Source of the DNA: an uncultured Candidatus Saccharibacteria bacterium | GTDB lineage: Bacteria; Patescibacteriota; Minisyncoccia; Minisyncoccales; Staskawiczbacteraceae | DNA length: 64,000 nt | Assembly: GCA_964397155.1 (NCBI GenBank) | Contig: CAYNHB010000001.1 | Location: forward strand, 2,093 to 66,092 | Reading direction: 5' to 3' | Shown here: positions 1,890 through 52,383 of the stretch, piece by piece | How positions within the stretch are numbered: position 1 is the first letter of the stretch | Layout of the letters: each line of letters starts with the position of its first letter | Made by a program: the position numbers and the translations under genes | The notes under the pieces: generated by a model | Told to the model about the DNA's origin: nothing | What the model saw: the letters and a program-made list of their open reading frames with translations, nothing else | Databases searched by the model: none

Positions 1890-2409
1890 ATTTTATTAAA
1901 GAATTTATATTTTGCTCTTTTAATTGTTCTTTGCCTTTTAAAAAAACTAATTCAATTAAAAATTCAACTCCAATTAATTTGCCTTTTAACTCCTTTACTA
2001 AATCAACAGCTGCTTTCATTGTACCTCCTGTAGCTAAAACATCATCAACCAGCAAAACTTTTTCACCCGGCAAAATTGAATCTTGATGCATTTCAATTGT
2101 GTTTGACCCGTATTCTAAAGCATAATCCCTTGAAACTGTTTTTGAAGGCAGTTTGCCTTTTTTGCGCACAATGGCAATGCCTGTTTTTAATTTGTATGCC
2201 ATGGCAGAAGCCAGCAAAAATCCGCGGGCATCAATGCCGATTATTTTGTCTATATCTTGTGCTTCATAGGGGTGGCACAATTCATCAATCATTATAGAAA
2301 AAATTTCTTTGTCTTCCAGCAAAGGGGTTATGTCTTTAAAATTAACCCCTGGCTTTGGCCAGTCCGGAACTTCCCTTATTTTTGATTTGAAAAGTTGTTG
2401 GATGTTCAT
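1879..2409 (-). CDS. apt: Adenine phosphoribosyltransferase
   Basis: PRTase fold with the PRPP-binding motif VLLVDDVLATGGT and the APRT-typical N-terminus (VPDWPKPGVNFKDITPLL). 176 aa. Confidence 0.9.
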   Translation of the reverse strand: MNIQQLFKSKIREVPDWPKPGVNFKDITPLLEDKEIFSIMIDELCHPYEAQDIDKIIGIDARGFLLASAMAYKLKTGIAIVRKKGKLPSKTVSRDYALEYGSNTIEMHQDSILPGEKVLLVDDVLATGGTMKAAVDLVKELKGKLIGVEFLIELVFLKGKEQLKEQNINSLIKYES

Positions 2410-6360: not shown

Positions 6361-8018
6361 AAAAAGAATACAAATCAATTTTTCTTGTAAAACTTCCTCT
6401 GTGTTCTCATCCTGACTCCGAAGACAGCGATAGTTTTAGAACCAAAAACCCGTTTAGGCCGGACCCTTCTTTGGCTTTACCGGCATTGTGCGCTTTTATA
6501 GAAAGATACAAAACTTATGATTATAAAATAAAAGCCGTAGATTTAAACCTAGAGGCTTATACTAAACCCGGAACCCCGGTAGATCCGTCTGTTTTCCCCG
6601 GATTGTTAGAGAAAACTATTAAAAACAACGATTATGATGTTTTATCTATATCAATAATGTTTGTTTTTAATGTAAAGTGGGTTGATGATATTGTAAAATT
6701 ATCAAGAAAATTTCATCCTGAGGCAAAAATAATTATCGGTGGCGGATATCCTACGCTTTTTCCTGATAGATGTTTAGCAAAACACGATATTGATAACGCG
6801 ATAATAGGGGAAGGAGAAGCTACTTTTTTGCATATTATTAATAAATATAATAATCATCAAGATCCTGAGTTTGATAAAAAATTTCCTCATGGGTCATATG
6901 CGGCAAAAAATGAAAAAGGAGAAATTAATATTATCGAAGGAAAGAACAGCTTTATTGATCTAGCTAATTTGCCAGTTCCGGCTTGGGATTATATAAATAT
7001 AGAAAAATATTTTGAGAAGAGCGGGGAAAGCACACTGCCAATTGAAGGGAGCAGAGGATGCCCGTATCGTTGTTATTATTGTACCAGCTTCCTTTTTTGC
7101 GGGCCAAGGATTCGCTATAAGCCAGTTGATAATTTAATAAAAGAGATATTAGAGATAAAAAAAAGATACAAGGGTGTAAAAACTTTGCGTTTTGTAGATG
7201 ATAATCTTTCTTTTTCTAAAGACTGGATCAAGGATTTATTGAATAGAATAATAGATATGAAATTGCCGTTAAAATTAGAGATTCAAAACTTTTCAGTCAA
7301 GCATTTAGACGAAGAAATAGTAAGCTTATTAGTTAAAGCTAATATGAAGACATTTACTCTAGCTATTGAGTCAGGTTCTCCTGAAATACAAAAACGCATT
7401 AACAAGAACTTAAACCTTGATATGGTAAGAGGAGTAGTAAAAATGATAAAATCTCATGGTGTTCATCTCCATCTTTGCTGGATGGTAGGCTTTCCAAATG
7501 AAACATTGGATCAGATTAATGAAACTTTTGCTTTCGCCCGCGAATTAAAAGCTAACTCAAACCAATTTGTTACAGTTTTACCGTATCCTGGAACGCCGAT
7601 GTTTAATGAGGCAAAGAGAGACAATTTACTAGTTTTTTCCGAAGACAATTTAGATAAGTTTGATAATAGGAGATGTGACTATTTAAAATCAGATCAATGG
7701 AATTATGATCAGCTTCAGAAAATTATATATGATGCCAATATTGAAATGAATTTTCTTAAAAATCCTTCTCTTGAAACTGCTGAAGGGCGAGACCGCCTCT
7801 TAGAGTTTTTTCAGCCCCTTTTATTGGCGATACCAGAACACGTTGTTTTGCATTTAGTTGTTGGATATATTCACAAGAAGAAAGAGAATTATTCTGAATC
7901 TGAAAAGCATTACAATACAGCCAAAGAGCTTTTAAAAGACAAAAAGCTTTCTGAAACTTTTACTAAATATTTATCTTGGGATAACCTAGTTATACGAGAT
8001 TTTAACGCATGGCTATAA
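6357..8018 (+). CDS. B12-binding (class B) radical SAM enzyme
   Basis: The Cx3Cx2C motif GCPYRCYYC follows an N-terminal Rossmann-like cobalamin-binding region. 553 aa. Confidence 0.8.
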   Translation: MKKEYKSIFLVKLPLCSHPDSEDSDSFRTKNPFRPDPSLALPALCAFIERYKTYDYKIKAVDLNLEAYTKPGTPVDPSVFPGLLEKTIKNNDYDVLSISIMFVFNVKWVDDIVKLSRKFHPEAKIIIGGGYPTLFPDRCLAKHDIDNAIIGEGEATFLHIINKYNNHQDPEFDKKFPHGSYAAKNEKGEINIIEGKNSFIDLANLPVPAWDYINIEKYFEKSGESTLPIEGSRGCPYRCYYCTSFLFCGPRIRYKPVDNLIKEILEIKKRYKGVKTLRFVDDNLSFSKDWIKDLLNRIIDMKLPLKLEIQNFSVKHLDEEIVSLLVKANMKTFTLAIESGSPEIQKRINKNLNLDMVRGVVKMIKSHGVHLHLCWMVGFPNETLDQINETFAFARELKANSNQFVTVLPYPGTPMFNEAKRDNLLVFSEDNLDKFDNRRCDYLKSDQWNYDQLQKIIYDANIEMNFLKNPSLETAEGRDRLLEFFQPLLLAIPEHVVLHLVVGYIHKKKENYSESEKHYNTAKELLKDKKLSETFTKYLSWDNLVIRDFNAWL

Positions 8019-9952
8019 ACATATATTTTGCTGATTTAGTATACAAAACCAATAAGACAAACTTTTTTGTACCCTTGAACATAGGATATGTTGCAGCTTT
8101 TCTAAAAGAGAGGTTTAGAGAAGATGTTAACATTAAGCTTTTTAAATATCCGGATGTTCTTGAAAAAGCTCTAGTTGAAAACCCTCCTGATATTTTGGCT
8201 TTGAGCTATTACAACTGGAATGCCAGGTTAAGCCTTCTTTTTCTGGATATGGTTAAACGATTAAACTCGAAGACATTAACAGTTATGGGTGGGCCGAACA
8301 TCAGAACTGATCCAGACAGCCTTAAAAAATTTTTTGCCAGTCACACCAATCTTGATTATTATATAACCAACGACGGCCCGGAGCCTTTTTCCAAACTTAT
8401 TGGTGAAATTTTAGCAGGGCGCCCCAATCCCGATCCTTTGTCTTTGGCTGCTGAACCCTTTGATGCAAAAAGCATGGAAATAAACCACCCCAGCCCTTAT
8501 CTTACAGGATTGTTGGATGAGTTTTTGGCTGACCCTGATATAAACATTCTTTTGGAAACTAACAGGGGGTGTCCTTTTAGGTGCGCTTATTGCGCTTGGG
8601 GAGGGATGCTCCCTAAAATAAGAACAAGGCCCCTTGAGCAGGTTTTAAAAGAAATTGAGTATATAGCTGAAAAATCAGCAAGTCAGCCCACTTGGATATT
8701 CTGCGATAGTAATTTTGGGATTTTACCCAGAGATTTGGAAATTGCAAAAAAGGTGCGGGAAGTAATGGATAAAAAAGGGTACCCTAAAGATGTGATTATT
8801 TGGCAGTCAAAAAACACGCCGGCAAGAAACATAAAAATTGGCGAACTTTTAGGGAAAAATAACAGGGTATTAATTGCCATACAGTCAGCAGACCCCAAGG
8901 TTCTTGATATTATCGGCCGGGGAAACATAAAAATGAGCAGCATAAAAGAAGAAGTAGATTATTACCACAAAAAAAACCTTAAACTGGGAACGGATATTTT
9001 GGTAGGATTGCCCGGCGAGAGCAAAGACAGCCACTGCAATACTTTGGCAGCTGCTTTTGATATGGGATTTGATTATATTGCCCCACTTAATATTATGCTT
9101 TTACAGGGCACAAGGTATGAAAGCGATGAGTATCGCCAAAAATATGGAGTTAAAACCAAATACAGGCCGATTTTCGGCGCTTACGGCACATATGATAATA
9201 AAAAAGTATTTGAAATAGAAGAGTCGGTCAGGGCCACAAAAGATATGCCAGAACAAGAAATGAATAATCTTAAAATTCACCACTGGCTTATTTTCCTTAC
9301 TTGGAATTATGGTGTTTTCAAACCCATTTTGATGCTGGGCAAAAAACAAGGAATTAACCCTGAAACCGTTATAAAAGAGCTCTCTCAAACCCAAAACCCT
9401 GTGTTAAAAGATTTTTTTGACCGTTTTAAAAAACAATCTATGGAAGAATGGTTCAAAACTAAAGAAGAAATGATTTCTTTTTACGAACGGCCTGAAAATT
9501 TTAGCAATTTAGTCAAGGGTTTTGTAAAATTAAACCTTTTTTATGTGGCATGGGCTTTTCAGAACCCTGAAGTTCTCAATGCTTTAAAAAAAGAAATGGA
9601 AGCTATTGTTGTTGAAAAACTTAAAGAAAACAATGTTTTTGATCTGACTATTATAAAAGGAGTGGCTGAGCTTTCAGACCTTTTTGTCTGCAAAAATTTT
9701 TTGGAAGGCGAAAGGCAAATAACTGTAAAATATCCAGGCCAAGTTGTTTCAGTTGCGATTGATGATGCAAAATTCGCCGATAAAGATACTGTTGAATTAG
9801 AAATTTATCGGCCCCAGGAGTTTGTTGAACTTTGCAGGGCGCACCTGTGCCCGGACGGAAAGGAAAATTTATCTTTAGAAAATATCGCCAAGTTTTTAGA
9901 AATAGGAGGCGCCAGTACGCTTAAAAATAAGGTAATTGTAAAAAATCTTTAA
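8009..9952 (+). CDS. B12-binding radical SAM enzyme with ~250-aa C-terminal extension (tandem paralog 1)
   Basis: Cx3Cx2C motif NRGCPFRCAYCAWG. About 75% amino-acid identity to the next ORF. Confidence 0.8.
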   Translation: MAINIYFADLVYKTNKTNFFVPLNIGYVAAFLKERFREDVNIKLFKYPDVLEKALVENPPDILALSYYNWNARLSLLFLDMVKRLNSKTLTVMGGPNIRTDPDSLKKFFASHTNLDYYITNDGPEPFSKLIGEILAGRPNPDPLSLAAEPFDAKSMEINHPSPYLTGLLDEFLADPDINILLETNRGCPFRCAYCAWGGMLPKIRTRPLEQVLKEIEYIAEKSASQPTWIFCDSNFGILPRDLEIAKKVREVMDKKGYPKDVIIWQSKNTPARNIKIGELLGKNNRVLIAIQSADPKVLDIIGRGNIKMSSIKEEVDYYHKKNLKLGTDILVGLPGESKDSHCNTLAAAFDMGFDYIAPLNIMLLQGTRYESDEYRQKYGVKTKYRPIFGAYGTYDNKKVFEIEESVRATKDMPEQEMNNLKIHHWLIFLTWNYGVFKPILMLGKKQGINPETVIKELSQTQNPVLKDFFDRFKKQSMEEWFKTKEEMISFYERPENFSNLVKGFVKLNLFYVAWAFQNPEVLNALKKEMEAIVVEKLKENNVFDLTIIKGVAELSDLFVCKNFLEGERQITVKYPGQVVSVAIDDAKFADKDTVELEIYRPQEFVELCRAHLCPDGKENLSLENIAKFLEIGGASTLKNKVIVKNL

Positions 9953-15916: not shown

Positions 15917-17236
15917 ATGAAGACAAAAAGCACAGACGAAGTAAAAGAGTTATATAAATATTGGAGCAAAAGAATCTTTTGGAGCGTTTGGATAACTTAT
16001 GCCTGCTTTTATTTAGTAAGAGTGAATATGTCTATTGCCCTTCCTGGAATTATGTAGGAATTTGGGTTGTCAAAAACAGCAATGGGCGGTGTTTTGTCTG
16101 CCATGTTTTTTGCTTATGCTGTTGGGCAGTTTATCAATGGCCAGCTTGGCGACAAATTTGGAGGAAGAAAGCTGATAAGCATTGGTTTGATAGTTTCTGC
16201 AATTATTAACCTTGTGTTTGGTTTTACCCATGGAATTATTTCTGCAATGATGCTTTTGTGGGGTTTGAATGGATATTTCCAGAGCATGGGATGGAGCCCG
16301 AGCGTTAAAACAGTCGCAAACTGGTTTTCGCCAAGCAAAAGATCAAAATTCAGCAGCTTGCTAGGGACCTCATATCAAATAGGAAATGCTATATCATGGG
16401 CCCTTTCCGGGTTTATTGTGGGGCTGTTCGGATGGAGGTTTGCATTTATAATTCCTGGGGCAATATGTCTTTTTGTCGGCCTTCACTGGGCAATTCGCGG
16501 CAGAAACGCGCCCGAAGAAGTTGGACTGCCGACTGTGGAGGAAGAAGAAAAGGGAAAACTTGATGAAAAAGCAACAAGCATTGAAGTTAAAATTGAAGTC
16601 AAAACAGACCATCACATAGGATTTAAAGAAACTTTGAAAATGTGCCTTTTCAACAGAGGCGTTTGGATAGTTGCTCTTGGATTATTTTTTTTAAATGTTG
16701 TAAGATATGGATTTTTGGACTGGGCGCCAACTTATATGTTTGAAGTTCAGGGAGCAGCTATATCACTCGCAGCTTACAAGGCAATGGTTATGCCTATCGC
16801 GGGCTCGTTAGGAGCTTTATTTGCCGGCTGGGCATCTTATAAATATTTTAGAAACAGGAAAGCTCCGGTTTCAGCTGTGATGCTGTTTCTGCTTGGAATT
16901 TCTGCATGGCTTTATATGCAAATACCCGCAGGAGACTGGATGTTAAGCTTAATTTGTTTAATGTTTATCGGGTTCATGACATACGGGCCCCACGTAATGA
17001 TGGTAACATCAATGCCAATGGATTTTGGAACCAGAAAGGCGGCCGCTTCTGCAGCTGGATTTATAGATGGATGGGGTTATGTTGGAGCAGCATTAACTGG
17101 AGTTGCAAGCGGCTGGTTAATTGATGCGTTCAGCTGGGATGCTGCGTTTTATTTCTGGATATTATGCGCGTTTATAGCAGGAATTCTGATGTTGACTCTT
17201 TGGAAATACAAACCTAAAAAAGGAGAATATTGCTAA
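15917..17236 (+). pseudogene. GlpT/UhpC-family MFS organophosphate:phosphate antiporter interrupted by an in-frame TAG at 16055-16057
   Basis: ATG 15917 encodes MKTKSTDEVKELYKYWSKRIFWSVWITYACFYLVRVNMSIALPGIM, a GlpT-like TM1. An in-frame TAG follows. The same frame then continues EFGLSKTAMGGVLSAMFFAYAVGQFINGQLGDKFGGRK (MFS TM2 and the G-x-L-x-D-K-x-G-R-K loop) to TAA at 17236. Either a nonsense mutation, a sequencing error or read-through. Confidence 0.55.
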
Positions 17237-17775: not shown

Positions 17776-19026
17776 TTGATGAAGATTTGCAATATCAATT
17801 TAAGTAAAATTATAAAGCGAGCTTGCGGATTGCCTCTTTATTTGATTTATTGTCTTTCCTGTTTGGCGCCGAGGAGTAAAAGGATTTGGGTCTTTGGAAC
17901 AGAAAGGAATTTTACTGATAATTTTAAATATCTGTTTCTATATATTGCTAACAATAAAAAAGATAAAGTAAAAGCAGTATGGATTTCCCAAAGCAAAAAC
18001 CTTGCAAAACAGCTAAAAAAAGAAGATTATAATGCCTATTCGAATACATCCCTTAAAGGAATATATTATACCTTAAGAGCTAAATATTTTTTTGTTAATG
18101 AAAATTCTTCTGATATAAATTTTTGGCTTTCTGGAGGAACGAAAAAAATTGCCCTTTACCATGCCATGCCTTTTAAAAAAGTAGGGTATGACACAAAGAA
18201 AGGAAAACACAGCCATTTTTTACATCTCAAAGGGATTAAAAAAAATATATTTAGATTGCTCGCCCCATGGACGTTTGAAAAAAAAGATTTTATTATCGCC
18301 ACCTCGCCTATCTTTCAGAAAATAATGGCTTCATCTTTTTGCACTGACGAAAACAAAGTTATTATTACCGGCTCTCCGAGAAATGATATTTTTTTCAATG
18401 AAATTAAAAACTCTGAACTGGGTAATGATAAATCTATATTCTGGCAAATAAAGAATTTTAAAACTAAAGGCAAAAAGATTATATTCTATTTACCTACCTG
18501 GCGGGACACGGGAGGAGATCCATTAGAAGAAGCGAACATTAATTTTGATGCACTTAAAAAATTTTTAAATTTGAATAACGCTGTTTTTATAGCTAAGTTC
18601 CATATACGCGCAGATATAAACGAAGAAAACTGGCAAAAACTGAATTCTGAAGAATTTTTAATTTTGCCCAGCAATACTGATATTTACCAAATTCTTCCTA
18701 AGACCGATATTTTGATTACCGACTATTCTTCAGTATTTTTTGATTTTCTTTTGATAAACAGGCCAGTAATATTTTTCCCTTATGACTTTCAGAAATATAT
18801 TAGTAAAGACAGAGAATTATATTTTGATTATGATGAATTTACCCCCGGTCCGAAGGTTTATAACTTTAACGAGCTTTTAAGCCAGCTGGATCGCCTTTTA
18901 AAAGGAGAAGATGGCTATGAACAGCAAAGAGAAAAGATAAGAAGCCAATGTTTCAGCCATATTGACGGTAATTCATCTGAAAGAATTTTTAAGACAATTT
19001 ATAATGAAGCACAAATTAAAAAATAA
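17776..19026 (+). CDS. CDP-glycerol glycerophosphotransferase (TagB/TagF family)
   Basis: C-terminal motifs IFYLPTWRD and DILITDYSSVFFDFLLINRPVIFFPYD are typical of Glyphos_transf enzymes. Confidence 0.75.
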   Translation: MMKICNINLSKIIKRACGLPLYLIYCLSCLAPRSKRIWVFGTERNFTDNFKYLFLYIANNKKDKVKAVWISQSKNLAKQLKKEDYNAYSNTSLKGIYYTLRAKYFFVNENSSDINFWLSGGTKKIALYHAMPFKKVGYDTKKGKHSHFLHLKGIKKNIFRLLAPWTFEKKDFIIATSPIFQKIMASSFCTDENKVIITGSPRNDIFFNEIKNSELGNDKSIFWQIKNFKTKGKKIIFYLPTWRDTGGDPLEEANINFDALKKFLNLNNAVFIAKFHIRADINEENWQKLNSEEFLILPSNTDIYQILPKTDILITDYSSVFFDFLLINRPVIFFPYDFQKYISKDRELYFDYDEFTPGPKVYNFNELLSQLDRLLKGEDGYEQQREKIRSQCFSHIDGNSSERIFKTIYNEAQIKK

Positions 19027-19574: not shown

Positions 19575-20573
19575 ATGATTTTTGATAACAAAAAAATATT
19601 AATAACCGGCGGGGCTGGATCAGTGGGTCAGGCCCTAATAAAAGAGATATTAAAATACAGCGGAAATACCATCCGTGTTTTTGACATATCTGAAAATGAG
19701 ATATCCAAATTAAGGCATAATTTTATGGGAGAAAAAAGACTGCGTTATTTGATTGGCGATGTAAGGGACTTAAAGAGATTAGAATTAGCGATGGAAGGGA
19801 TTGATATTGTTATCCATTTAGCGGCGATGAAGCACGTATATACCTGCGAGTATAATCCTTTTGAAGCAATTAAAACAAATATAGACGGCCTGCAAAATGT
19901 TATAGATTGCGCCAGAAATGAGAATGTTGAGAAGGTGATTTTTACCAGCACTGATAAAGCAGCGCGCCCCTTAAGTGTGATGGGCATGACTAAGCTTATA
20001 GGCGAAAAACTTATTTCTTCTGCAAACTATTATAAGGGAAGTAGTACGACATCATTTGCTTCAGTGCGTTTTGGAAATGTGGCGGGGTCAAACGGATCTG
20101 TTGTGCCGATTTTTAAAAAACAAATTCTCAATAGCGAACCCTTGAGGATTACCGATATGAAAATGACCCGTTTTGTTATTACTATGCAAGAAGCGGTAAG
20201 TTTAATTTGCCAAGCCGTTCAGCTTATGCAGGGAGGAGAGGTATTTGTGTGGAAAATGAGAACATTAAAAATAACTGATTTGGCAGATTCAATGATAGGC
20301 AGATACGCAGGGGGCAGGCAGGTAGAAGTGGTTATCACCGGAAAAGTAGAGGGCGAAAAAATACATGAAGACATAATGTCATCAGAAGAGCTTTCCCGAT
20401 CGGTAGAGTTGGATAATCTTTATATTATTTTTCCAATGATTGATTACTCAAATATTAAAAGCAGATACCAGAACGCAAAGCCGGTTGAAAATCCGATTAT
20501 CGCTTCAAATATGGGGACTCACATGTCTTCAGACGAGATAAATAAATTATTAGGAGAAGAAAAAGATTTATGA
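19575..20573 (+). CDS. pseB: UDP-N-acetylglucosamine 4,6-dehydratase (inverting), PseB/FlaA1/CapD-type
   Basis: ILITGGAGSVG, YLIGDVRD, HLAAMKHV, STDKAARPLSVMGMTKLIGEKL and GNVAGSNGSVVPIFKKQI closely follow PseB throughout its length. Confidence 0.85.
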   Translation: MIFDNKKILITGGAGSVGQALIKEILKYSGNTIRVFDISENEISKLRHNFMGEKRLRYLIGDVRDLKRLELAMEGIDIVIHLAAMKHVYTCEYNPFEAIKTNIDGLQNVIDCARNENVEKVIFTSTDKAARPLSVMGMTKLIGEKLISSANYYKGSSTTSFASVRFGNVAGSNGSVVPIFKKQILNSEPLRITDMKMTRFVITMQEAVSLICQAVQLMQGGEVFVWKMRTLKITDLADSMIGRYAGGRQVEVVITGKVEGEKIHEDIMSSEELSRSVELDNLYIIFPMIDYSNIKSRYQNAKPVENPIIASNMGTHMSSDEINKLLGEEKDL

Positions 20574-21991
20574 TAAAAGTTTTATTAATTGATCCGCCAT
20601 TCCCGGAAAGGCCCTGGGATATAAATTGGCTGACGCAGTTTCCGCCCAAGGGCTTGATGTACATTGCCGCCTACCTGCGCCAGGCCGGAGTTGATGTGGA
20701 TGTTTTAGATATAAAGCAACTGCAGTTTGAAAGGCCCTCGCTTCTTTCGCGTTCAATAAGCGAGATACAGCAATTTGTAAAATATTATGTAAAGGAGCAT
20801 AATCCGGAAATTATTGGAATAACATCAACAACAATATCATATATTCCGGCGACAAAAATAGCCAAAGCAGTAAAGGAAGCGGCTCCAAACGCAAAAGTAG
20901 TTATTGGGGGGGTGCACGTTACATTTACAGCTCACGAAACTTTAACGGAGTGCCCATGGATAGATGTTGTTGTAAGGGGAGAGGGAGAGCGCCCGATACT
21001 TGAACTTGCGCAAGGCAAGACGCTTGCGCAAGTTCAAGGCATTAGTTTTAGAGAAAATGGAGAGATAATCGATAACCCAATGGGCCCATTATTAAATCCT
21101 GAGGAAATTCCTGTGCCAGCATATGATATGCTTGATATGAAAAAATACGCTTATGTTGTTTTAATGTGCACTCGGGGCTGTCCTCATAATTGCACCTTTT
21201 GTGAATTGCCTCAGGTGCATGGGAAAGGGATCCGCTGCCGTTCTTCTGAGAGAGTTTCTGAAGAGTTAGAGCTTGCTCTTTCTTTAAATCCAAATCTTGA
21301 AATTAGGTATGAAGATGAATTTATGGGCTTGTTTCCAGAACGCACAAAACAGATTTTAGATTTAGTGAAGAACAAAAGAGTTGGCCAGTTCCGGGCTGCT
21401 ACCAGACCTGATGGGCTTACAGATGAAATACTCGTTAAATTAAAGGAAGCGGGTTGCACCAATCTTTACATTGGCATGGAATCGGGCTCAGATGAGGTTT
21501 TAAAATTTAATAAGCGAGCTGTTACAGTGTCAAAAATTTTAGAGATTGCTGAAATGTTTAAGAAAAACGAAATGCTTTTTCACTCCGGGTTTATTTTAGG
21601 GCTTCCGGGAGAGAATAAACAAACACTTGAACAAACATTAGATATTGCCCTAAAGTGTTGCGATGCCACATTTGAAACAGTAAAGAAAAATTTTAAAGAG
21701 TTTCTTAGAATAATGCCGTTCAAATTAATTGTGGAAAATTCAAGAGCGGAGTTTAACTTATTGGCTCCAAATCCAGGCACAGAAATATTCCAGAACCCAG
21801 GAAAATTCAGGTATAAAATATTTCATAAGAATTGGGAGCTTTATGACTGCAATACTTCGGTTGGGGAACCCTATGATGTGAGTGCTTTGGAAATTGAAGA
21901 ATTTAAGAAAAAAGCTTTTAAGGCTGTCCAAGATAAAATGAAAGCTTACGATTTGCCAGTAAATTGGTGGGATTATGGATATAAAGGATAA
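20570..21991 (+). CDS. B12-binding (class B) radical SAM enzyme
   Basis: N-terminal B12-binding-like domain followed by the Cx3Cx2C motif RGCPHNCTFC. Confidence 0.8.
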   Translation: MIKVLLIDPPFPERPWDINWLTQFPPKGLMYIAAYLRQAGVDVDVLDIKQLQFERPSLLSRSISEIQQFVKYYVKEHNPEIIGITSTTISYIPATKIAKAVKEAAPNAKVVIGGVHVTFTAHETLTECPWIDVVVRGEGERPILELAQGKTLAQVQGISFRENGEIIDNPMGPLLNPEEIPVPAYDMLDMKKYAYVVLMCTRGCPHNCTFCELPQVHGKGIRCRSSERVSEELELALSLNPNLEIRYEDEFMGLFPERTKQILDLVKNKRVGQFRAATRPDGLTDEILVKLKEAGCTNLYIGMESGSDEVLKFNKRAVTVSKILEIAEMFKKNEMLFHSGFILGLPGENKQTLEQTLDIALKCCDATFETVKKNFKEFLRIMPFKLIVENSRAEFNLLAPNPGTEIFQNPGKFRYKIFHKNWELYDCNTSVGEPYDVSALEIEEFKKKAFKAVQDKMKAYDLPVNWWDYGYKG

Positions 21992-39771: not shown

Positions 39772-40557
39772 ATGAGTAATCAAAAGATTAACACAATTAT
39801 TTTATGCGGCGGGATGGGTACACGTTTGAGAGAGGAAACAGAATTTAAGCCAAAGCCCTTGGTGGAAGTGGGGGGCAAGCCGATTTTGTGGCACATTATG
39901 AAGATTTACAGCCACTATGGCTACAAAGATTTTGTTTTAGCCTTAGGTTATAAAGGAAGCCAGATAAAAGATTATTTTTTAAGACAAAAATATTATACTT
40001 GCGATTTTTCGTTTAATCCGAGCCACGGAAAAGTCAGCGGTTTTTTTCAAAACGGCGAAGAGGATAATTTTAATATTATTTTTGCTGAAACAGGATTGGA
40101 AACCCCACACGGAGAAAGAGTTTTAAAAGTTAAAAAACATGTTCCCGAAGAAATTTTTATGGTTACTTATGGCGACGGAGTGAGCGACATAGACATTAAT
40201 AAACTGATAGAATTTCACAAAAGCCATGGAAAAATAGCAACCATTACCGGGATTCACCCTTCTTCAAGGTGGGGGCTGGTTAATTCAGATGAAAATAATA
40301 TAGTCACAGAATTTGCCCAGAAACCCCTGCTTTACGATTATATAAACGGGGGTTTTATGGTTTTTAACAAAGAGTTTTTTGATTATTTAAAAGAAGGAGA
40401 CATGATAGAAGACGCTTTATCAAGATTGATACCTGAAAAGCAATTAGCTCTTTATAAGCATGAGGGCTTTTGGTATGCGATGGATACTTACAGGGATTTT
40501 TTGCTATTAAATGAGTTTTGGGAAAAAAACCCAAAATGGAAAATATGGCAAGATTAA
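39772..40557 (+). CDS. rfbF: Glucose-1-phosphate cytidylyltransferase
   Basis: ILCGGMGTRLREETEFKPKPLVEVGGKPILWHIMKIYSHYGYKDFVLALGYKG is nearly diagnostic of RfbF/DdhA. Confidence 0.85.
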   Translation: MSNQKINTIILCGGMGTRLREETEFKPKPLVEVGGKPILWHIMKIYSHYGYKDFVLALGYKGSQIKDYFLRQKYYTCDFSFNPSHGKVSGFFQNGEEDNFNIIFAETGLETPHGERVLKVKKHVPEEIFMVTYGDGVSDIDINKLIEFHKSHGKIATITGIHPSSRWGLVNSDENNIVTEFAQKPLLYDYINGGFMVFNKEFFDYLKEGDMIEDALSRLIPEKQLALYKHEGFWYAMDTYRDFLLLNEFWEKNPKWKIWQD

Positions 40558-41492
40558 CTTCAAGCAAAATTTTAGTTACTGGCGGGGCAGGTTTTATTGG
40601 CAGCCATTTGGCAAACGAACTTATAAGGCAAGGCAATAAAGTAATTGTTGTTGACGATTTGTCTTCTGGCAAAAAAGAAAATGTAAGCCCCAAAGCTAAA
40701 TTTTATAAAACAGATGTTAGAAGCAATAAAATTGCTGAAATTTTTAAGAAAGAAAAACCAGAAGTTGTTTTTCATTTTGCTGCCAGGCCATTGGTCCAAG
40801 ATGCTTATAAAAACCCCTATGAGGCAATTGAGGTGAATATTATGGGTACTGTTAATGTTTTAGAGGCCTGCAGGCAACAAAAAAACATAAAGTCAATTAT
40901 TGTTGTTTCTTCAGACAAGGCATATGGCAAAGCAAAAGAATTGCCTTATAAAGAGGATCACCCATTAAGGGGTGACCACCCATATGACGCATCCAAATCA
41001 TCGGCTGATTTAATAGCAAGGGCGTATTTTACAACCTATGGTCTGCCAATTAAAATCACCAGATTCAGCAATGTTTTTGGTCCGGGCGACTTAAATTTTT
41101 CGAGAATTATTCCAGGTATAGTGGAATCTGCGATAAAAAACAAAAAACTTTTGATAAGAAGCGACGGGAAAATGATAAGAGAATATACCTATATTAAAGA
41201 TATAGTGAACGGATGCATCAGATTGGCCGGCCATAAAAAAGACCTTGGAGAGGCGTTTAATTTTGGTTCGGAAAATGTTTTAAGCGTTTTAGATATTGTG
41301 AAGAAATCAGAAGTCGCGCTTGGTAAAAAAATTAATTATAAGATATTGAATATTGCCAAAAATGAAATACCAGAGCAATATCTTGACTGGTCGAAGGCAA
41401 AAGAAAAATTGCGCTGGCAGCCAGAAACAACTTTTGAAAAAGGAATTCAAGAAACATACGATTGGTTTAATAAGGAAAAGTTCTTTTCATAA
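40536..41492 (+). CDS. NAD-dependent sugar epimerase/dehydratase (extended SDR)
   Basis: ILVTGGAGFIGSHL motif and a YxxxK region (YDASKSSAD). Confidence 0.7.
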   Translation: MENMARLTSSKILVTGGAGFIGSHLANELIRQGNKVIVVDDLSSGKKENVSPKAKFYKTDVRSNKIAEIFKKEKPEVVFHFAARPLVQDAYKNPYEAIEVNIMGTVNVLEACRQQKNIKSIIVVSSDKAYGKAKELPYKEDHPLRGDHPYDASKSSADLIARAYFTTYGLPIKITRFSNVFGPGDLNFSRIIPGIVESAIKNKKLLIRSDGKMIREYTYIKDIVNGCIRLAGHKKDLGEAFNFGSENVLSVLDIVKKSEVALGKKINYKILNIAKNEIPEQYLDWSKAKEKLRWQPETTFEKGIQETYDWFNKEKFFS

Positions 41493-41541
41493 AAAAAGCA
41501 CGTTCATTGGTACATACCTTGGTACGTACCAATGAACGTGC
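41491..41541 (-). terminator. Strong hairpin terminator serving the minus-strand GC-rich gene
   Basis: Perfect 16-bp inverted repeat gcacgttcattggtac / gtaccaatgaacgtgc with a 12-nt loop. An A7 run on the + strand becomes a U-run on the minus transcript. Confidence 0.6.
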
Positions 41542-41582
41542 ATACGTGATCGGTTAAGACCGCGCGGTCCCAACAGAATCTA

Positions 41583-42197
41583 TCAGGAATTTTGTAAGAG
41601 CAGTTCGGTGGCGTGGTCGGACCTGAAGATTCCGACCGCCGCTGGTATGATTATCTCCTTGTGGTGCAAGACTGTGTTGCTTGGCAGGTGGTCTATTGGC
41701 CACCAAGAACCCCTTCCTCCTTCGGATTTTTCAAATTCACAGAGGTATATCATTGATTGAAAATGCCCTCGTTTTTCTGTGGTATGGTTGAAGTTGCGGA
41801 CGAACTCGTACCGTTTCAGTCGCGCGTCAAACTCCTCCCTTTTGGCGAGTCGCAGAAAAACATCCTCAATTTCCTCACCAGCTCGCTGAATTGAGCCCGG
41901 GCAATGCCACTGGCCAGGGTAGGCCGTGTCGTGTGTTGAGCGTCGAGTGAGATAGACATTAATAGAAGGGTGCGGGGAGGTGTCGATCTGATGGATAGAT
42001 TTCGCTATGCAGAGCCACACCGCTTCCACAGCGGGCTGGACGACAATCAGAGATATGGCGTTGAAAAGGTTTGTCCCGAGAGGCTTTCTTCCGTCCACCT
42101 TTTCAAGGAGCTCCAGGAGTTGGTCCATCTCTTCATCGGATAACGGTTGTTGGTCGTTTCTGGTCATCAGACACAGTCCTTTTTTCAAATTGGTCAA
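41583..42197 (-). CDS. Nudix-like hydrolase with a divergent Nudix box, in a GC-rich (~52%) segment
   Basis: PGQWHCPGSIQRAGEEIEDVFLRLAKREEF aligns loosely to the Nudix box (GxWxxPGG...E...RE.xEE). The gene is compositionally distinct from its surroundings. Confidence 0.4.
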   Translation of the reverse strand: MTNLKKGLCLMTRNDQQPLSDEEMDQLLELLEKVDGRKPLGTNLFNAISLIVVQPAVEAVWLCIAKSIHQIDTSPHPSINVYLTRRSTHDTAYPGQWHCPGSIQRAGEEIEDVFLRLAKREEFDARLKRYEFVRNFNHTTEKRGHFQSMIYLCEFEKSEGGRGSWWPIDHLPSNTVLHHKEIIIPAAVGIFRSDHATELLLQNS

Positions 42198-42245
42198 ATA
42201 TTGACAAAAAACAAGTCAAAGAAATAATAACAAATAATTGTATAT

Positions 42246-43025
42246 ATGTCAATAGAAAACAAACAGTCAGTAGAGTTGTGGGATAATTATTACAGAGAAG
42301 AAAAAACAAACCCTAAGGTCGGGTTTTTCAGTTCTTATGATATATTTTTACATGACGCTATTTTGGCAAAATATCTGCCGTTTAATAAGAAAAGCAAAGA
42401 AGAGGTTAAGATTTGTGAAATTGGGTCTGGCGACGGAAAGTTATTAAAGAAAATTGCAGATAACTTTAATTATGAACCGTTTGGAATAGAAAATGCCCAA
42501 GAACCGATTAGGCAAGCTAGAGACAGGGGAATAAATATGATTGAAGGAGATGTATTTGATGAAGCTATTTTAGAAAAATATAATGGATATTTTGATGTGG
42601 TTTATTCTTACGGTTTTATAGAACATATTATGCCACCAGAAAAAGCTGTAGAGATTCATTTAAGGCTTTTAAAAAAGGGAGGATATTTCTTTATACAAAT
42701 ACCCCGTTTAAAAGGGTTTAATTATTTACGGTTTAAGATATTCAGGCCCGATCTTTTGCCTCTTCATAATTTAACAATAATGGAAGAAGAGCAGTTAAGG
42801 CGATTTTGCAAAAAAGAAAGTGTTCAAGAGTTGTTTTGTAAAAATTATGGAACATTTAAACTGAGAGTTCCCATGCCCAAGAAAAATATTTTCTGGTTTA
42901 TTCTTAGGGTAGTATATAGTTTAGAATTTATTTTAAATCCTATTTGCAGGATTGTTTTTAAGGATAACGGCTTTGAAACAAGGCTGTTCAGTCCCTGCGT
43001 TATGTTTATAGGAAAAAAAAATTAG
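42246..43025 (+). CDS. Class I SAM-dependent methyltransferase
   Basis: ICEIGSGDGKLL motif I and a downstream acidic motif. Confidence 0.6.
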   Translation: MSIENKQSVELWDNYYREEKTNPKVGFFSSYDIFLHDAILAKYLPFNKKSKEEVKICEIGSGDGKLLKKIADNFNYEPFGIENAQEPIRQARDRGINMIEGDVFDEAILEKYNGYFDVVYSYGFIEHIMPPEKAVEIHLRLLKKGGYFFIQIPRLKGFNYLRFKIFRPDLLPLHNLTIMEEEQLRRFCKKESVQELFCKNYGTFKLRVPMPKKNIFWFILRVVYSLEFILNPICRIVFKDNGFETRLFSPCVMFIGKKN

Positions 43026-43028
43026 TTT

Positions 43029-44153
43029 ATGAATAATAAAATTTTACTAAGCTTTGCTATTCCAACTTATAACAGGGCCAATTCTTTAGAAAAGCTTTTA
43101 AATAATGTTTTACCTCAAGCAAAAGAATTGAAGGATGATGTTGAAATATGCATTTCCGATAATGGTTCAACAGACAATACGCGGGAGGTAGTGGCTGGTT
43201 TTAAGAATAAGTATCCGGACTTGACAATAAAATATAGCAAGAATAAAGAAAATTTAGGAGTTGATGCAAACATAATTAAAGTAGCGGACATGTGTGATGG
43301 AGATTTTGTTTGGACATTTGGAGATGATGATCTTATTGTAAGCAGTGGTTTAAATGCGGTTGTTAGCTTTCTGAAAAAAAATAAAGAAAATTATATAAAA
43401 GATATTGGATTGATTGTTCTTAGAGTAAAATCATATTTTATTGACAAGCAAACTGGGAAAAAAACAATTTATGTGGATACTTTTGACAAGAATAAGCCAG
43501 AGACCATTAAAATAGACAGAAAAGAGGTTATCGGGCTAAGTTTTCCGCAAATCGCCTTTTTATCAATATTAATTTATAACAATAGCCTGCTTAAAGGATT
43601 ATTGGCAGAAGATAGAGCTTTTGCTGAGAAAGGAATCGGGACAAGCCATAACCACATAGTACTGCTTTCTTTAATGTTTATGAAGTATCCTCATGCTAAT
43701 GGAGTTGTCTTTAATAAAGAAATGGTTAGTCAAGAATTATCTCAATACAAATATTTTATTGAGGATAAATTTATGTTGCATTATCAAATGCAAAAGAAAA
43801 TAAACAACTTGTTGCTGTCTTATAAGCATACAAGCGATGATTATGCGCCTTTGTTTACTCAAAGATATAAAGGATTGTTAAGATGGGGTGTTGTAATAGA
43901 CATGATGGTGATGAGAGCCTTTAAGAGTTTTAATTATTTTTCATATTTTGGCTGTTTAAAGTTGTTTTTTAAACACGCAACATTCATAGATGCGCTGTTG
44001 TTTTCCTTCACATTTTCAGTTCTTTTTTTGATCCCCCCTGTAATTTTAACTTCTTTGTATAAGGGTCTGCTAATAATCAGGCATGGCAAAAAATGGAAAG
44101 AGAAATGGGATTTTATAGACAATGCGACTTCCAAGCCGAGAGGCGGAGATTAA
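43029..44153 (+). CDS. Family 2 glycosyltransferase with C-terminal TM segments
   Basis: FAIPTYNRANSL, ICISDNGSTDNT and a DDD motif fit the GT-A fold. Confidence 0.8.
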   Translation: MNNKILLSFAIPTYNRANSLEKLLNNVLPQAKELKDDVEICISDNGSTDNTREVVAGFKNKYPDLTIKYSKNKENLGVDANIIKVADMCDGDFVWTFGDDDLIVSSGLNAVVSFLKKNKENYIKDIGLIVLRVKSYFIDKQTGKKTIYVDTFDKNKPETIKIDRKEVIGLSFPQIAFLSILIYNNSLLKGLLAEDRAFAEKGIGTSHNHIVLLSLMFMKYPHANGVVFNKEMVSQELSQYKYFIEDKFMLHYQMQKKINNLLLSYKHTSDDYAPLFTQRYKGLLRWGVVIDMMVMRAFKSFNYFSYFGCLKLFFKHATFIDALLFSFTFSVLFLIPPVILTSLYKGLLIIRHGKKWKEKWDFIDNATSKPRGGD

Positions 44154-50641: not shown

Positions 50642-51586
50642 ATGAAAAAACTAGTAGAATTAGTAAACAATTTTAAAGGGAAAAAAATAGGAGTGATTGG
50701 CGATTTAATGCTGGACCATTTTATATGGGGAGATGTTGAGCGCATTTCGCCCGAAGCTCCAATTCCGGTTGTTTTGGCGCACAAGGAAAGTTTTATACCC
50801 GGCGGTGCTGGGAACACTGCCAGCAATATTGCTGCCTTGGGCGGAAAAGTTTTTTTAGTGGGGCTGGCAGGCAAAGATGAAGCTGGCAAAAAACTGATTT
50901 CTGAATTTCAAAAAATAGACGTCGATACCAGCGGAGTTTTAATTTCAAGCCAGAAGCCGACCATCCAAAAAATAAGAATTGTAGCTCGGGGTCAGCAGGT
51001 TGTCAGGGTGGATAAAGAGAATACTGAATACATAAGCAAAGACATTGAAAAAAAATTAATTTCATTTATTTTGCCAAACATAAAAGAGTGGGACGGCATT
51101 GTGGTTTCAGATTATGCCAAGGGAGTGATTACTAAGAATTTTGCCCAAACTTTGGTTAAATTAGCTGTAAAGCATAAAAAGCCGATAATTTGTGACGTAA
51201 AGCCAAAACATGCGCCATATTTTAAAAATGCCACTCTTTTGAGCCCCAACCATAAAGAATGTTTAGAAATTGCTGGAGTAGAAGACGAAAGGCAAGCAGG
51301 CAAGATAATCCAAAAACAATTTAACTGCAGTGTTTTGCTCACCCAGGGAGCGCGAGGAGTTACTTTGTTTGGAAATAAAGAAATAAAACATTTTCCCGCT
51401 ATGGCAAAAGAGGTTTTTGATGTTAGCGGAGCCGGAGACACAACGGTGGCTGTTGCCACTTTGGCTTTAGCTTCAGGGGCTAACCTTGAGCAGGCCTCAA
51501 TTATAGCTAACCACGCGGCTGGCATTGTCGTGGGTAAGCTAGGAACTGCAGTAGTTTTTCCACAAGAATTAAAACAAAACTTATAA
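50642..51586 (+). CDS. hldE: D-glycero-beta-D-manno-heptose-7-phosphate kinase (HldE domain I, PfkB fold)
   Basis: GVIGDLMLDHFIWGDVERISPEAPIPVV, PGGAGN, and C-terminal DVSGAGDTTVAVA and AGIVVGKLGTAVV match HldE domain I end to end. Confidence 0.85.
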   Translation: MKKLVELVNNFKGKKIGVIGDLMLDHFIWGDVERISPEAPIPVVLAHKESFIPGGAGNTASNIAALGGKVFLVGLAGKDEAGKKLISEFQKIDVDTSGVLISSQKPTIQKIRIVARGQQVVRVDKENTEYISKDIEKKLISFILPNIKEWDGIVVSDYAKGVITKNFAQTLVKLAVKHKKPIICDVKPKHAPYFKNATLLSPNHKECLEIAGVEDERQAGKIIQKQFNCSVLLTQGARGVTLFGNKEIKHFPAMAKEVFDVSGAGDTTVAVATLALASGANLEQASIIANHAAGIVVGKLGTAVVFPQELKQNL

Positions 51587-51590
51587 AATT

Positions 51591-51622
51591 AAAAAAACCC
51601 ATCAGCTTTCGCGATGGGTTTG
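51591..51622. terminator. Bidirectional rho-independent terminator
   Basis: aaaaaaa-cccatc-agctttcgc-gatggg-ttt between the convergent hldE kinase (+) and the GC-rich Nudix gene (-). Confidence 0.7.
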
Positions 51623-51645
51623 GCAAATCATGCACACTTGGACTT

Positions 51646-52383
51646 TTAGGCCAAACTGGCCCATCCGCCACACAGCTCCAGTCCGAGTTGGCAGAGCGAA
51701 GCGAGCGCAAGCCACTCTAAAAGGATGCCTTTTTTGCCTTGTTCTATCAGGAAGTTTTCCGCTTCCAGTAGAGGCACAAGGGCGCATTTTTCCGGAATTA
51801 CGCCCTCTTTTCTAGGTGGTGCCGGTTTTTTTGTTACAAGAGTTGTACAGGTGGAGTAAAACTCCACATTGCCTCCTGCATCATTGGCTGCATAGACGCT
51901 AGTCAGCAAAGGCGCCGTCATCGCAATATCTGTGGCACTGCAACCATATTCTTCTGTAGCTTCTCGAAGACCATTGGCAATGGCCTGTTCATCAACCGCA
52001 TCAGCCACGCCTCCGGGAATCTCTAGTTGGTAATTTTCAGTTAATCCTTCAAGCTCCGGCGATTTCGGATACGTGCAGGGCTTGTCTGATGCCAAGAAAA
52101 ATACCCAGAGATTCTGCAGTCCGATTCTACGGAGATTCTGCAGGAAGCTAGGGAGGTCGCTACTATTTTTTGCCTGCGATTCATCCCATAACTCTTCTTC
52201 AACATACAGAACCATACACTTGGCCGACCTAAAGTGACCATTCTTTCGGGCTACAACTTCTCGATAACCGCTTGGGGTGCGAAACCCATGAAGGTGCAAC
52301 CACTTGCCTTTGCCGATCAGGTTCTTATGGTCGAAAACTATGGTTTTTCTCATGGTTTCTCTCCAAGATTTAGTCAAATTCAA
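51646..52383 (-). CDS. Nudix hydrolase (ADP-sugar pyrophosphatase-like) in a GC-rich (~50%) segment
   Basis: LEIPGGVADAVDEQAIANGLREATEEYG fits the Nudix box (GG...E...REUxEExG with one extra residue). The minus-strand gene is compositionally distinct. Confidence 0.6.
   Translation of the reverse strand: MNLTKSWRETMRKTIVFDHKNLIGKGKWLHLHGFRTPSGYREVVARKNGHFRSAKCMVLYVEEELWDESQAKNSSDLPSFLQNLRRIGLQNLWVFFLASDKPCTYPKSPELEGLTENYQLEIPGGVADAVDEQAIANGLREATEEYGCSATDIAMTAPLLTSVYAANDAGGNVEFYSTCTTLVTKKPAPPRKEGVIPEKCALVPLLEAENFLIEQGKKGILLEWLALASLCQLGLELCGGWASLA

Follow-up and report, generated by a model that had tools for sequence, protein, structure and literature searches.

A GC-rich Nudix-fold gene in a Patescibacteria glycan locus is probably a long-term resident with a family-wide compositional offset

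Is a GC-rich gene that lies antiparallel within an AT-rich glycan operon necessarily a recent arrival? The question is raised by a minus-strand gene with a Nudix-like box at about 41580-42200 of the window analysed here, by which we mean the whole stretch of 64,000 nucleotides from a contig of an uncultured Candidatus Saccharibacteria bacterium (CAYNHB010000001.1). A preliminary description of this DNA had read the abrupt change in guanine-plus-cytosine (GC) content and in strand as a sign of recent horizontal acquisition or, alternatively, of a gene under very different constraints. We found that recent acquisition is not supported and that the data favour the alternative. Our preferred explanation, to which we assign a rough probability of 0.55, is that this is a long-resident accessory Nudix gene of a Patescibacteria (Parcubacteria-type) surface-glycan locus, which bears transcription signals of its own and did not arrive by a recent insertion, that its product binds or cleaves a nucleoside diphosphate (NDP)-sugar, and that its GC excess is maintained within the family.

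Sliding-window analysis confirmed the compositional island, with GC of 0.48-0.55 in 41500-42199 as compared to 0.285-0.405 at 40000-41499 and 42200-44000 (200-nt windows). Only three segments of the 64 kb exceed the median plus 2.5 standard deviations (300-nt windows): 16251-16551, which is inside a major facilitator superfamily (MFS) transporter gene, 41501-42201, and 51401-52351. In the scan for open reading frames (ORFs), 41583..42197 on the minus strand was the sole long ORF of the island, as the preliminary description had proposed. However, its start is most likely the ATG at 42167 and not the TTG at 42197, because an AGGA lies 9 nt upstream, the promoter-implied transcription start site (TSS) is at about 42217, and identical independent contigs carry 194-amino-acid calls. 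The gene so defined has a GC of 0.51, with 0.57, 0.385, and 0.58 at the three codon positions (GC1, GC2, and GC3). The described switch of strand is real for the island, but it is not unique to it: all credible genes in 4974-63725 are on the plus strand other than the island gene and a second minus-strand gene at 51646-52353. A perfect 16-bp inverted repeat had also been described as bracketing the gene. The repeat exists (arms 41498-41513 and 41526-41541), but on one side only, so that the gene is not bracketed; seven T residues follow the hairpin on the minus strand, which identifies it as the intrinsic terminator at the 3' end of the Nudix gene.

Relatives of the locus were located through the adjacent methyltransferase gene. 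In L012, L013, and L017, whose flanks are 72-79% identical to those of the window at the amino-acid level, an antiparallel Nudix orthologue lies immediately upstream of the methyltransferase gene, with an extra metallo-beta-lactamase (MBL)-fold gene alongside. L010 and L011 carry an antiparallel orthologue in the same slot, and in L001 (flanks 53-64%) the order is nucleotidyltransferase, dehydratase, MBL, and Nudix, the last again antiparallel. The orthologues have 0.49-0.51 GC as compared to 0.30-0.38 in their flanks, and their GC3 values (0.56 in both L012 and L010, 0.53 in L001) match the 0.58 of the window. Synonymous differences between the window and L010, L012, or L006 are saturated (proportion, pS, 0.72-0.75), and orthologue GC3 is still 0.47-0.58. 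Orthologues that share the position, the GC-richness, and the third-position GC of the window gene are the very finding that the preliminary description had named as speaking against recent acquisition. In L015 and L016 (flanks 77-84%) the site is empty and the dehydratase gene runs into the start of the methyltransferase gene; since the Nudix gene is present in L012 and in L001, which are both more distant, loss from an ancestral presence is the simplest explanation.

The compositional offset extends across the family. We compared 22 loci from species-representative genomes, which by record title (titles not confirmed) comprise 17 from Patescibacteria lineages and 5 from Gammaproteobacteria or Udaeobacter. 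The gene is richer in GC than its flanks in 22/22 (+0.02 to +0.23, mean +0.12), and at 14 of the 22 loci its GC is reached by no equal-length flank window; it is the top ORF by GC in 19/27 cases. All codon positions contribute (GC1 +0.13, GC2 +0.06, GC3 +0.17), and so does the amino-acid composition, with R/(R+K) at about 0.6 versus 0.3 (median 0.62 in 149 cluster representatives) and GARP/FYMINK approximately doubled. Gene GC follows flank GC as 0.62 x flank GC + 0.28. The averaged GC profile is box-shaped, as the excess sets in at the start codon, persists for about 50 nt beyond the stop codon, and falls to zero thereafter, and it is independent of orientation relative to the operon, as both orientations are seen. 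Antiparallel orientation was considered as the cause of the excess and rejected, as the co-directional genes in L004, L027, and L036 are equally GC-rich. Conservation at the nucleotide level was not found; four-fold sites are as diverged as those of the flanks. The five loci titled Gammaproteobacteria or Udaeobacter (L028, L029, L032, L035, and L036) are on contigs of 37-47% GC; as the family is restricted to Patescibacteria in all other cases, mislabelling or mis-binning is possible.

These results indicate that the odd composition is a family trait, with no sign of recent foreign origin, and that the GC excess must have a directional force behind it, either selection on composition or expression, or GC-biased fixation combined with allele exchange. 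The composition would be held over the long term and within the bounds of the gene, covering three codon positions, amino acids, and a short 3' untranslated region (UTR), and a second Nudix gene in the window, discussed below, would be held alike.

The divergent Nudix-box-like segment noted earlier is real, and its box is degenerate. The AlphaFold2 (AF2) model of the protein has a predicted local distance difference test (pLDDT) score of 83, and some 290 Nudix chains were matched by Foldseek at a probability of 1.0, with AraR 5bs6 at the top, CDP-Chase, NUDT18, and 2fml also present, and GDP-mannose mannosyl hydrolase (GDPMH) 2gt2 listed. The family profile matches 2fml (E=3.4e-9) and NrtR 3gz5/3gz8 (about 1e-5). 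By this modelled fold and profile similarity, the island protein belongs to the Nudix homology clan. Two N-terminal helices and C-terminal helices at 167-184 and 186-191 lie outside the fold in the model. A search of 5.8 billion proteins returned 12 relatives with 37-99% identity, and, with E up to 1e-10, an exhaustive profile search gave 624 cluster representatives. The ratio of non-synonymous to synonymous substitution rates (dN/dS), taken from pairs of family orthologues with moderate divergence, is 0.11-0.23, which shows purifying selection on a protein-coding gene.

The canonical box GX5EX7REUXEEXGU with its metal-binding glutamates is present neither in the window copy, which reads S92-X5-E98-X7-R106-L107-X2-R110-E111 (SX5EX7RLX2RE), nor in the family, for which 149 cluster representatives give [S/T]X5EX7R[L/I/V]X2[R/K]EXG. 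The glutamate of "RE" is replaced by L, I, or V in 111/112 box matches and the first glutamate of "EE" is replaced in 97/112, while the second is retained in 95/112; the first glycine is S or T in 104/111. Because two catalytic glutamates are replaced family-wide, canonical Nudix pyrophosphatase chemistry appears unlikely. Invariant polar residues are numerous (E48, R76, D80, Y83, H88, R95, E98, R106, E131, R133, and H169), and further invariant features are G31, L34, and E48-A49 in the extra N-terminal two-helix segment and, at the C-terminus, H169 followed by I174 and P175.

One of the closest known parallels is GDPMH (Gmm/WcaH/NudD; 1RYA, 2GT2, 2I8T), which is encoded in E. coli colanic-acid and O-antigen clusters. 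Its box is GX5EX7RLX2AEXGU, and its products are GDP and sugar, as compared to the nucleoside monophosphate (NMP) and sugar phosphate of other members (PMC5389931). The island family has lost the same two glutamates, and the island gene likewise encodes a small Nudix-fold protein in a surface-glycan cluster beside NDP-sugar enzymes; the structural match of the island model to 2gt2 has E=1.4e-5 and TM-scores of 0.51/0.64. The two families differ in that the island family has S or T where GDPMH has G, and R or K where GDPMH has A, and in that GDPMH lacks the extra N-terminal two-helix segment and the C-terminal invariant His followed by I-P. The substrate of GDPMH is GDP-mannose, whereas the neighbours of the island gene suggest CDP- or dTDP-hexoses. 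Enzymes of the GDPMH class cleave at the sugar carbon with a histidine as catalytic base, and the invariant residues of the island family include two histidines, H88 and H169.

The conserved neighbourhood speaks for the proposed connection with NDP-sugar metabolism. Besides the RfbF-like and dehydratase-like neighbours in the window, NDP-sugar genes lie within 6 kb in 19/22 family loci; by type, short-chain dehydrogenase/reductase (SDR) dehydratases or epimerases occur at 14, DegT aminotransferases at 11, and nucleotidyltransferases at 7. We regard the suggested role as a "pathway valve" as plausible, with any chemistry probably being non-canonical. The most likely mechanism is that the protein binds the NDP-sugar or NDP-4-keto-6-deoxy-sugar intermediate made by its neighbours and then either releases NDP and free sugar through a non-canonical cleavage at the sugar carbon, in the role of a valve or proofreader, or goes no further than binding. 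Transcription would start at the gene's own promoter and converge on the upstream operon.

Among the competing explanations, the one that survives best, and that we consider possible though doubtful, is a sensor role of the NrtR/AraR type without catalysis, in which the protein would take up a sugar or NDP-sugar as ligand and control a partner through protein-protein contact, hydrolysing nothing. In NrtR and AraR regulators the Nudix box is likewise degenerate, and the fold serves to bind ADP-ribose or a sugar. By profile and structure these regulators (3GZ5, 3GZ8, 2FML, 5BS6) are the closest to the island protein, and the family-wide loss of two catalytic glutamates fits a binding role. Tandem paralogues (two in L001 at 7346-8513 and three in L004 at 7206-9226, GC 0.36-0.53) and fused double-domain members of 374-413 amino acids, a set that includes proteins P0143, P0144, P0146, P0153, and P0168, also suggest dimeric binding modules. 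Unlike the regulators, the island protein, at 194 amino acids, ends in C-terminal helices and is without a winged-helix domain; no DNA-binding domain was found in the AF2 model and no helix-turn-helix match in Pfam. Its setting is a glycan operon, as compared to the NAD and arabinose regulons of NrtR and AraR. The many invariant polar residues are what an active site would have, and catalysis is possible with this box pattern, as the example of GDPMH demonstrates (PMC5389931).

Before turning to explanations for the composition itself, it is worth describing the second minus-strand gene, which encodes another Nudix protein. In this case the box is intact (GX6EX7REX2EEXG), with E122, R130, E131, E135, and G137 invariant. 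The AF2 model is of moderate quality (pLDDT 69.5, loops with low confidence), and its full-length Foldseek matches are NUDT5 6gru (E=2.5e-8, about 230 columns), ADP-ribose pyrophosphatase (ADPRase) 1g0s, and YffH 3o52; no Pfam match was obtained. On the RE..EE box and the modelled ADPRase-type fold, the gene is of the NudF/NUDT5/NudK kind. M. tuberculosis ADPRase has an RE..EE box with GX6E spacing (PMC5389931), and the second protein shares both features with it. Unlike NudF, NUDT5, and NudK, the second gene is GC-rich, antiparallel, and wedged between ADP-heptose pathway genes, namely a heptose-7-phosphate kinase gene (rfaE_dom_I 353.7 bits, >345) and an HldC-like/GmhB fusion (GmhB 199 bits, >178), and these neighbours suggest that its substrate is likely to be ADP-heptose or a related ADP-sugar.

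The GC excess of this second gene is also shared by its family. Orthologues in L006-L009 occupy the identical slot, antiparallel, with 66-70% amino-acid identity, equal to flank divergence, and have a GC of 0.50-0.53 as compared to 0.32-0.36. A member with 42% identity is also beside heptose genes, and further members retain the excess. Paralogy of the two islands was ruled out, as BLASTP and hhalign show no relationship beyond the box. Relatives of the second family were not found on viral contigs. On a Staskawiczbacteria contig (L014, 2458-3222), an antiparallel Nudix gene of 254 amino acids with a GC of 0.51 versus 0.33 is flanked by two epimerase genes and is distantly related to the second-gene family (hhalign probability 70%).

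The island gene itself shows evidence of allele exchange. L010 and L012 share about 100% nucleotide identity in the MBL gene and 91-100% in the promoter and the first ~57 Nudix codons, while the identity of the Nudix core is only about 55%. The breakpoints are just after a conserved AVEAV motif and in the 3' intergenic region, and the L010 arrangement is supported by two independent contigs. The L010 core is nearer to the window core (65% amino-acid identity), whereas the L012 core is nearer to that of L001 (61%); at least two deep classes of core allele have therefore been shuffled among backgrounds. Among the loci examined, no further swaps were found beyond L010/L011 versus L012/L013/L017, and in the pairs L025/L026 and L028/L029 the Nudix gene co-diverges with its flanks. 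Core replacement between near-identical strains may point to selection, balancing or diversifying, acting on a protein that handles sugar nucleotides. Several homologue contigs (P0001, P0002, P0007, P0010, and P0011) are short, 822-2365 bp, and end near the gene, as assembly breaks at strain variation would give.

This exchange leads to a second and rather unlikely alternative, in which the locus is a recombination hotspot, balanced divergent core alleles are exchanged, and repair favours G and C. The L010/L012 mosaic and the shuffling of core classes relative to backgrounds agree with it, as does the shift of all codon positions and of amino acids, which a fixation bias predicts. Recombination has been linked to GC3 in bacteria (PMC4450053), which fits as well. 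However, the GC profile is box-shaped and the flanks are without shoulders, the second Nudix family is GC-rich without excess divergence or mosaicism, and L025/L026 and L028/L029 co-diverge with their flanks. The offset also counts against it, since at GC3 +0.17 to +0.4 it is apparently far above the effects of GC-biased gene conversion that have been reported in bacteria.

Equally hard to favour is selected expression control, in which rare GC-rich codons or a nuclease-resistant GC-rich mRNA would determine the amount of a potentially harmful NDP-sugar-degrading enzyme. In its favour, the excess is strictly gene-bounded and independent of orientation, and it occurs in two unrelated Nudix lineages that have in common only the enzyme class and the operon context. 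Selection at the codon level would not require the observed shift in amino-acid make-up and GC2, however, and the mRNA structure is not unusual (z = +1.06) while some paralogues are AT-rich.

Recent import from a GC-rich donor, as a newly inserted cassette that keeps the composition of the donor, is improbable. The abrupt change in composition and strand, the candidate promoter and terminator of its own, the empty site of L015 and L016, and the exchange of the Nudix core between near-identical backgrounds would all suit it. These points are outweighed by the same-slot GC-rich orthologues with saturated synonymous divergence and by the positive offset in 22/22 loci, which is beyond the reach of random within-phylum exchange. 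In the search of 5.8 billion proteins, the nearest homologues with examined contexts (99%, 68%, 54% identity and below) were all in AT-rich Patescibacteria contexts. Relatives of the island gene were not found on viral contigs, there is no tRNA in the window, no integrase or direct repeats flank the island, where the neighbours are all glycan genes, and no target-site duplication was seen at the island junctions or the empty site. Among the marks of a genomic island, atypical composition was found, while absence in relatives, mobility hallmarks, and a recent-arrival composition were not. A phage or defence origin was also considered and rejected: no relatives of either family were found on viral contigs, PADLOC gave no match for either window protein, and PHROG Nudix matches were weak.

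It is worth comparing the island with phage morons, which are autonomous promoter-gene-terminator units between adjacent genes, often with deviant composition. The island unit resembles them in having a candidate promoter and a terminator of its own, a deviant composition, and a position between genes that overlap in L015. Unlike a moron, it is chromosomal, has no viral relatives that we could find, and occupies a slot conserved across deeply diverged relatives. The family is GC-rich in essentially every host, and composition is therefore no mark of recency here.

A structured RNA or an assembly chimera in place of a protein gene is scarcely credible: GC-rich islands in AT-rich genomes are often structured RNAs and many homologues are on very short contigs, but the island folds no better than its shuffles (z +1.06 and +0.43 for the two strands), an Rfam scan returned nothing with E allowed up to 1, the family is under purifying selection and has a confidently modelled fold, as expected of a protein, and the possible chimera raised by the preliminary description is excluded by three independent assemblies (L039, L040, and L041) that are 100% identical across the island junctions.

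Several observations weigh against our preferred explanation of a long-resident, NDP-sugar-handling Nudix gene. Between the window and L012 the core evolves faster (49-57% amino-acid identity) than the flanks (72-79%), although the N-terminal 50 codons diverge to the same degree as the flanks (78%) and are as GC-rich as the core (0.52); and the core replacement between L010 and L012 means that horizontal exchange does occur, which weakens a strictly vertical history. AT-rich paralogues exist (L001 7346-7885, 0.36; L021, 0.35; L004 8675-9226, 0.39), so GC-richness is not obligatory for the fold. The ancestral GC3 needed for the present offset is estimated at >1, which makes the passive decay of a single ancient import unlikely, but this amelioration estimate is only rough, being built on saturated distances. 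As for the protein, the Pfam NUDIX model gives the window copy E=0.027 and 14.9 bits, under the 21.1-bit cut-off, and the L012 orthologue 28.6 bits, over it. GDPMH is matched in sequence (1rya, 2gt4, 2i8t) only at E=1.4-1.6 and in the box region alone, which is not significant, so that the shared box reflects parallel loss on an NrtR-like scaffold, and the GDPMH-type pattern could equally belong to a non-catalytic binder like NrtR or AraR.

A broader interpretation, which we offer tentatively and regard as possible, is that two unrelated Nudix lineages in Patescibacteria sugar-nucleotide operons are actively held at about 50-60% GC as compared to 32-40% in their hosts, a gene-specific "compositional homeostasis" that stops sharply at the gene limits, covers codons, amino acids, and UTR, and has lasted long enough for synonymous sites to saturate, and that the family of the first island constitutes a new, independently derived class of NDP-sugar glycosyl hydrolase with a GDPMH-type box. 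Its cause might be selection on nucleotide content, or else biased conversion at a locus of balanced polymorphism where allele classes of the Nudix core are swapped between strains. If this is true, composition-based detection of horizontal transfer systematically misreads such genes. With a gene-bounded GC excess of +0.1 to +0.23 over AT-rich hosts in both Nudix families, the locus also offers a counter-example to the reading of compositional islands as recent transfers, and a tractable case for the study of composition away from mutational equilibrium.

The presence of a Nudix enzyme in a glycan cluster is an already known theme (Gmm/WcaH). A literature search on Nudix proteins, Patescibacteria, and GC content found no description of three features reported here, namely the family of the island gene, the gene-bounded GC excess of both Nudix families, and the replacement of the Nudix core. 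The island family is sizeable and uncharacterised, and combines GDPMH-type glutamate loss with NrtR-like ancestry and a tie to NDP-hexose dehydratase and aminotransferase genes. Its setting is of wider interest, as the surface glycans of Patescibacteria probably mediate host attachment.

The features of the two loci are collected in Table 1. Both ends of the island unit have counterparts in relatives. L012 has a different hairpin followed by T7 at the site equivalent to the terminator, and consensus matches give candidate promoters TTGACA-17-TATACT at the same place in L012 and TTGACT-17-TATATT in L001. Read on the opposite strand, the opening codons of the methyltransferase gene, ATG TCA ATA (42246-42252), supply the -35 element TTGACA of the candidate Nudix promoter. 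The -10 element of a plus-strand candidate promoter overlaps that of the minus-strand candidate, and a bidirectional promoter at the boundary of the island and the methyltransferase gene is possible on this arrangement of motifs. The plus-strand candidate was not recovered in L012 and is therefore weak. The overlap between -35 element and first codons is also found in L012 (6001-6007) and retained in relatives with the Nudix gene; in the empty-site relative L015 the N-terminus of the methyltransferase differs.

Table 1. Positions of the two minus-strand Nudix genes, their signals, and the genes next to the first island
Feature	Coordinates	Strand	Evidence
Glucose-1-phosphate cytidylyltransferase-like (RfbF-like) gene	39772-40557	+	TIGR02623 256.6 bits (cut-off 300)
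NDP-glucose 4,6-dehydratase-like gene	40518-41492	+	TIGR01181, TIGR02622 about 200 bits, below cut-offs; Pfam
Intrinsic terminator, 16-bp perfect stem (20 pairs allowing G-U) then T7	41491..41541	-	Terminator scan
GC-rich 3' untranslated stretch, about 51% GC, stop codon to terminator	41542..41582	-	Counted from sequence
Coding sequence, 194 amino acids, Nudix fold with degenerate box	41583..42167	-	ORF, composition, homologues, AF2/Foldseek, dN/dS
Inferred 5' UTR; AGGA ribosome-binding site 42180..42177, 9 nt before ATG 42167	42168..42217	-	Sequence; TSS from promoter match
Candidate promoter for methyltransferase unit, TTGACA-16-AATAAT	42201..42228	+	Consensus scan; weak
Candidate sigma-70-type promoter of Nudix gene, TTGACA-17-TATTAT with TG, 11/12	42224..42252	-	Consensus scan
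Class I S-adenosylmethionine (SAM) methyltransferase gene	42246..43025	+	Homologues, Pfam, orthologous loci
Terminator-like hairpin and T-run of second Nudix gene	51588..51621	-	Terminator scan
NudF/NUDT5/NudK-like NDP-sugar pyrophosphatase gene, 235 amino acids, GC 0.49	51646..52353	-	Box, AF2/Foldseek, synteny

Downstream of the methyltransferase gene are a family 2 glycosyltransferase (GT2) gene, a flippase gene, and further glycan genes. The MBL-fold hydrolase gene that accompanies the Nudix gene in relatives (L012 4567-5328, L001 8641-9405, and also L018) is absent from the window; it matched RNase Z and a cyclic-nucleotide phosphodiesterase model (Pfam Apyc1-like), in both cases below threshold. 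Near the start of the window, a gene for a DUF3800-domain protein (44-550, +) is closely followed, on the other strand, by a DUF3800-V RNA (564-661, -; Rfam, 53.3 bits, exceeding the gathering score). Glycan-type genes are annotated at several points in the window. Other envelope genes are also present: 2406-4949 on the minus strand encodes an 847-amino-acid O-antigen-ligase (Wzy_C) protein with tetratricopeptide (TPR) repeats, 17776-19026 a CDP-glycerol glycerophosphotransferase, and 20570-21991 a B12-binding radical SAM enzyme.

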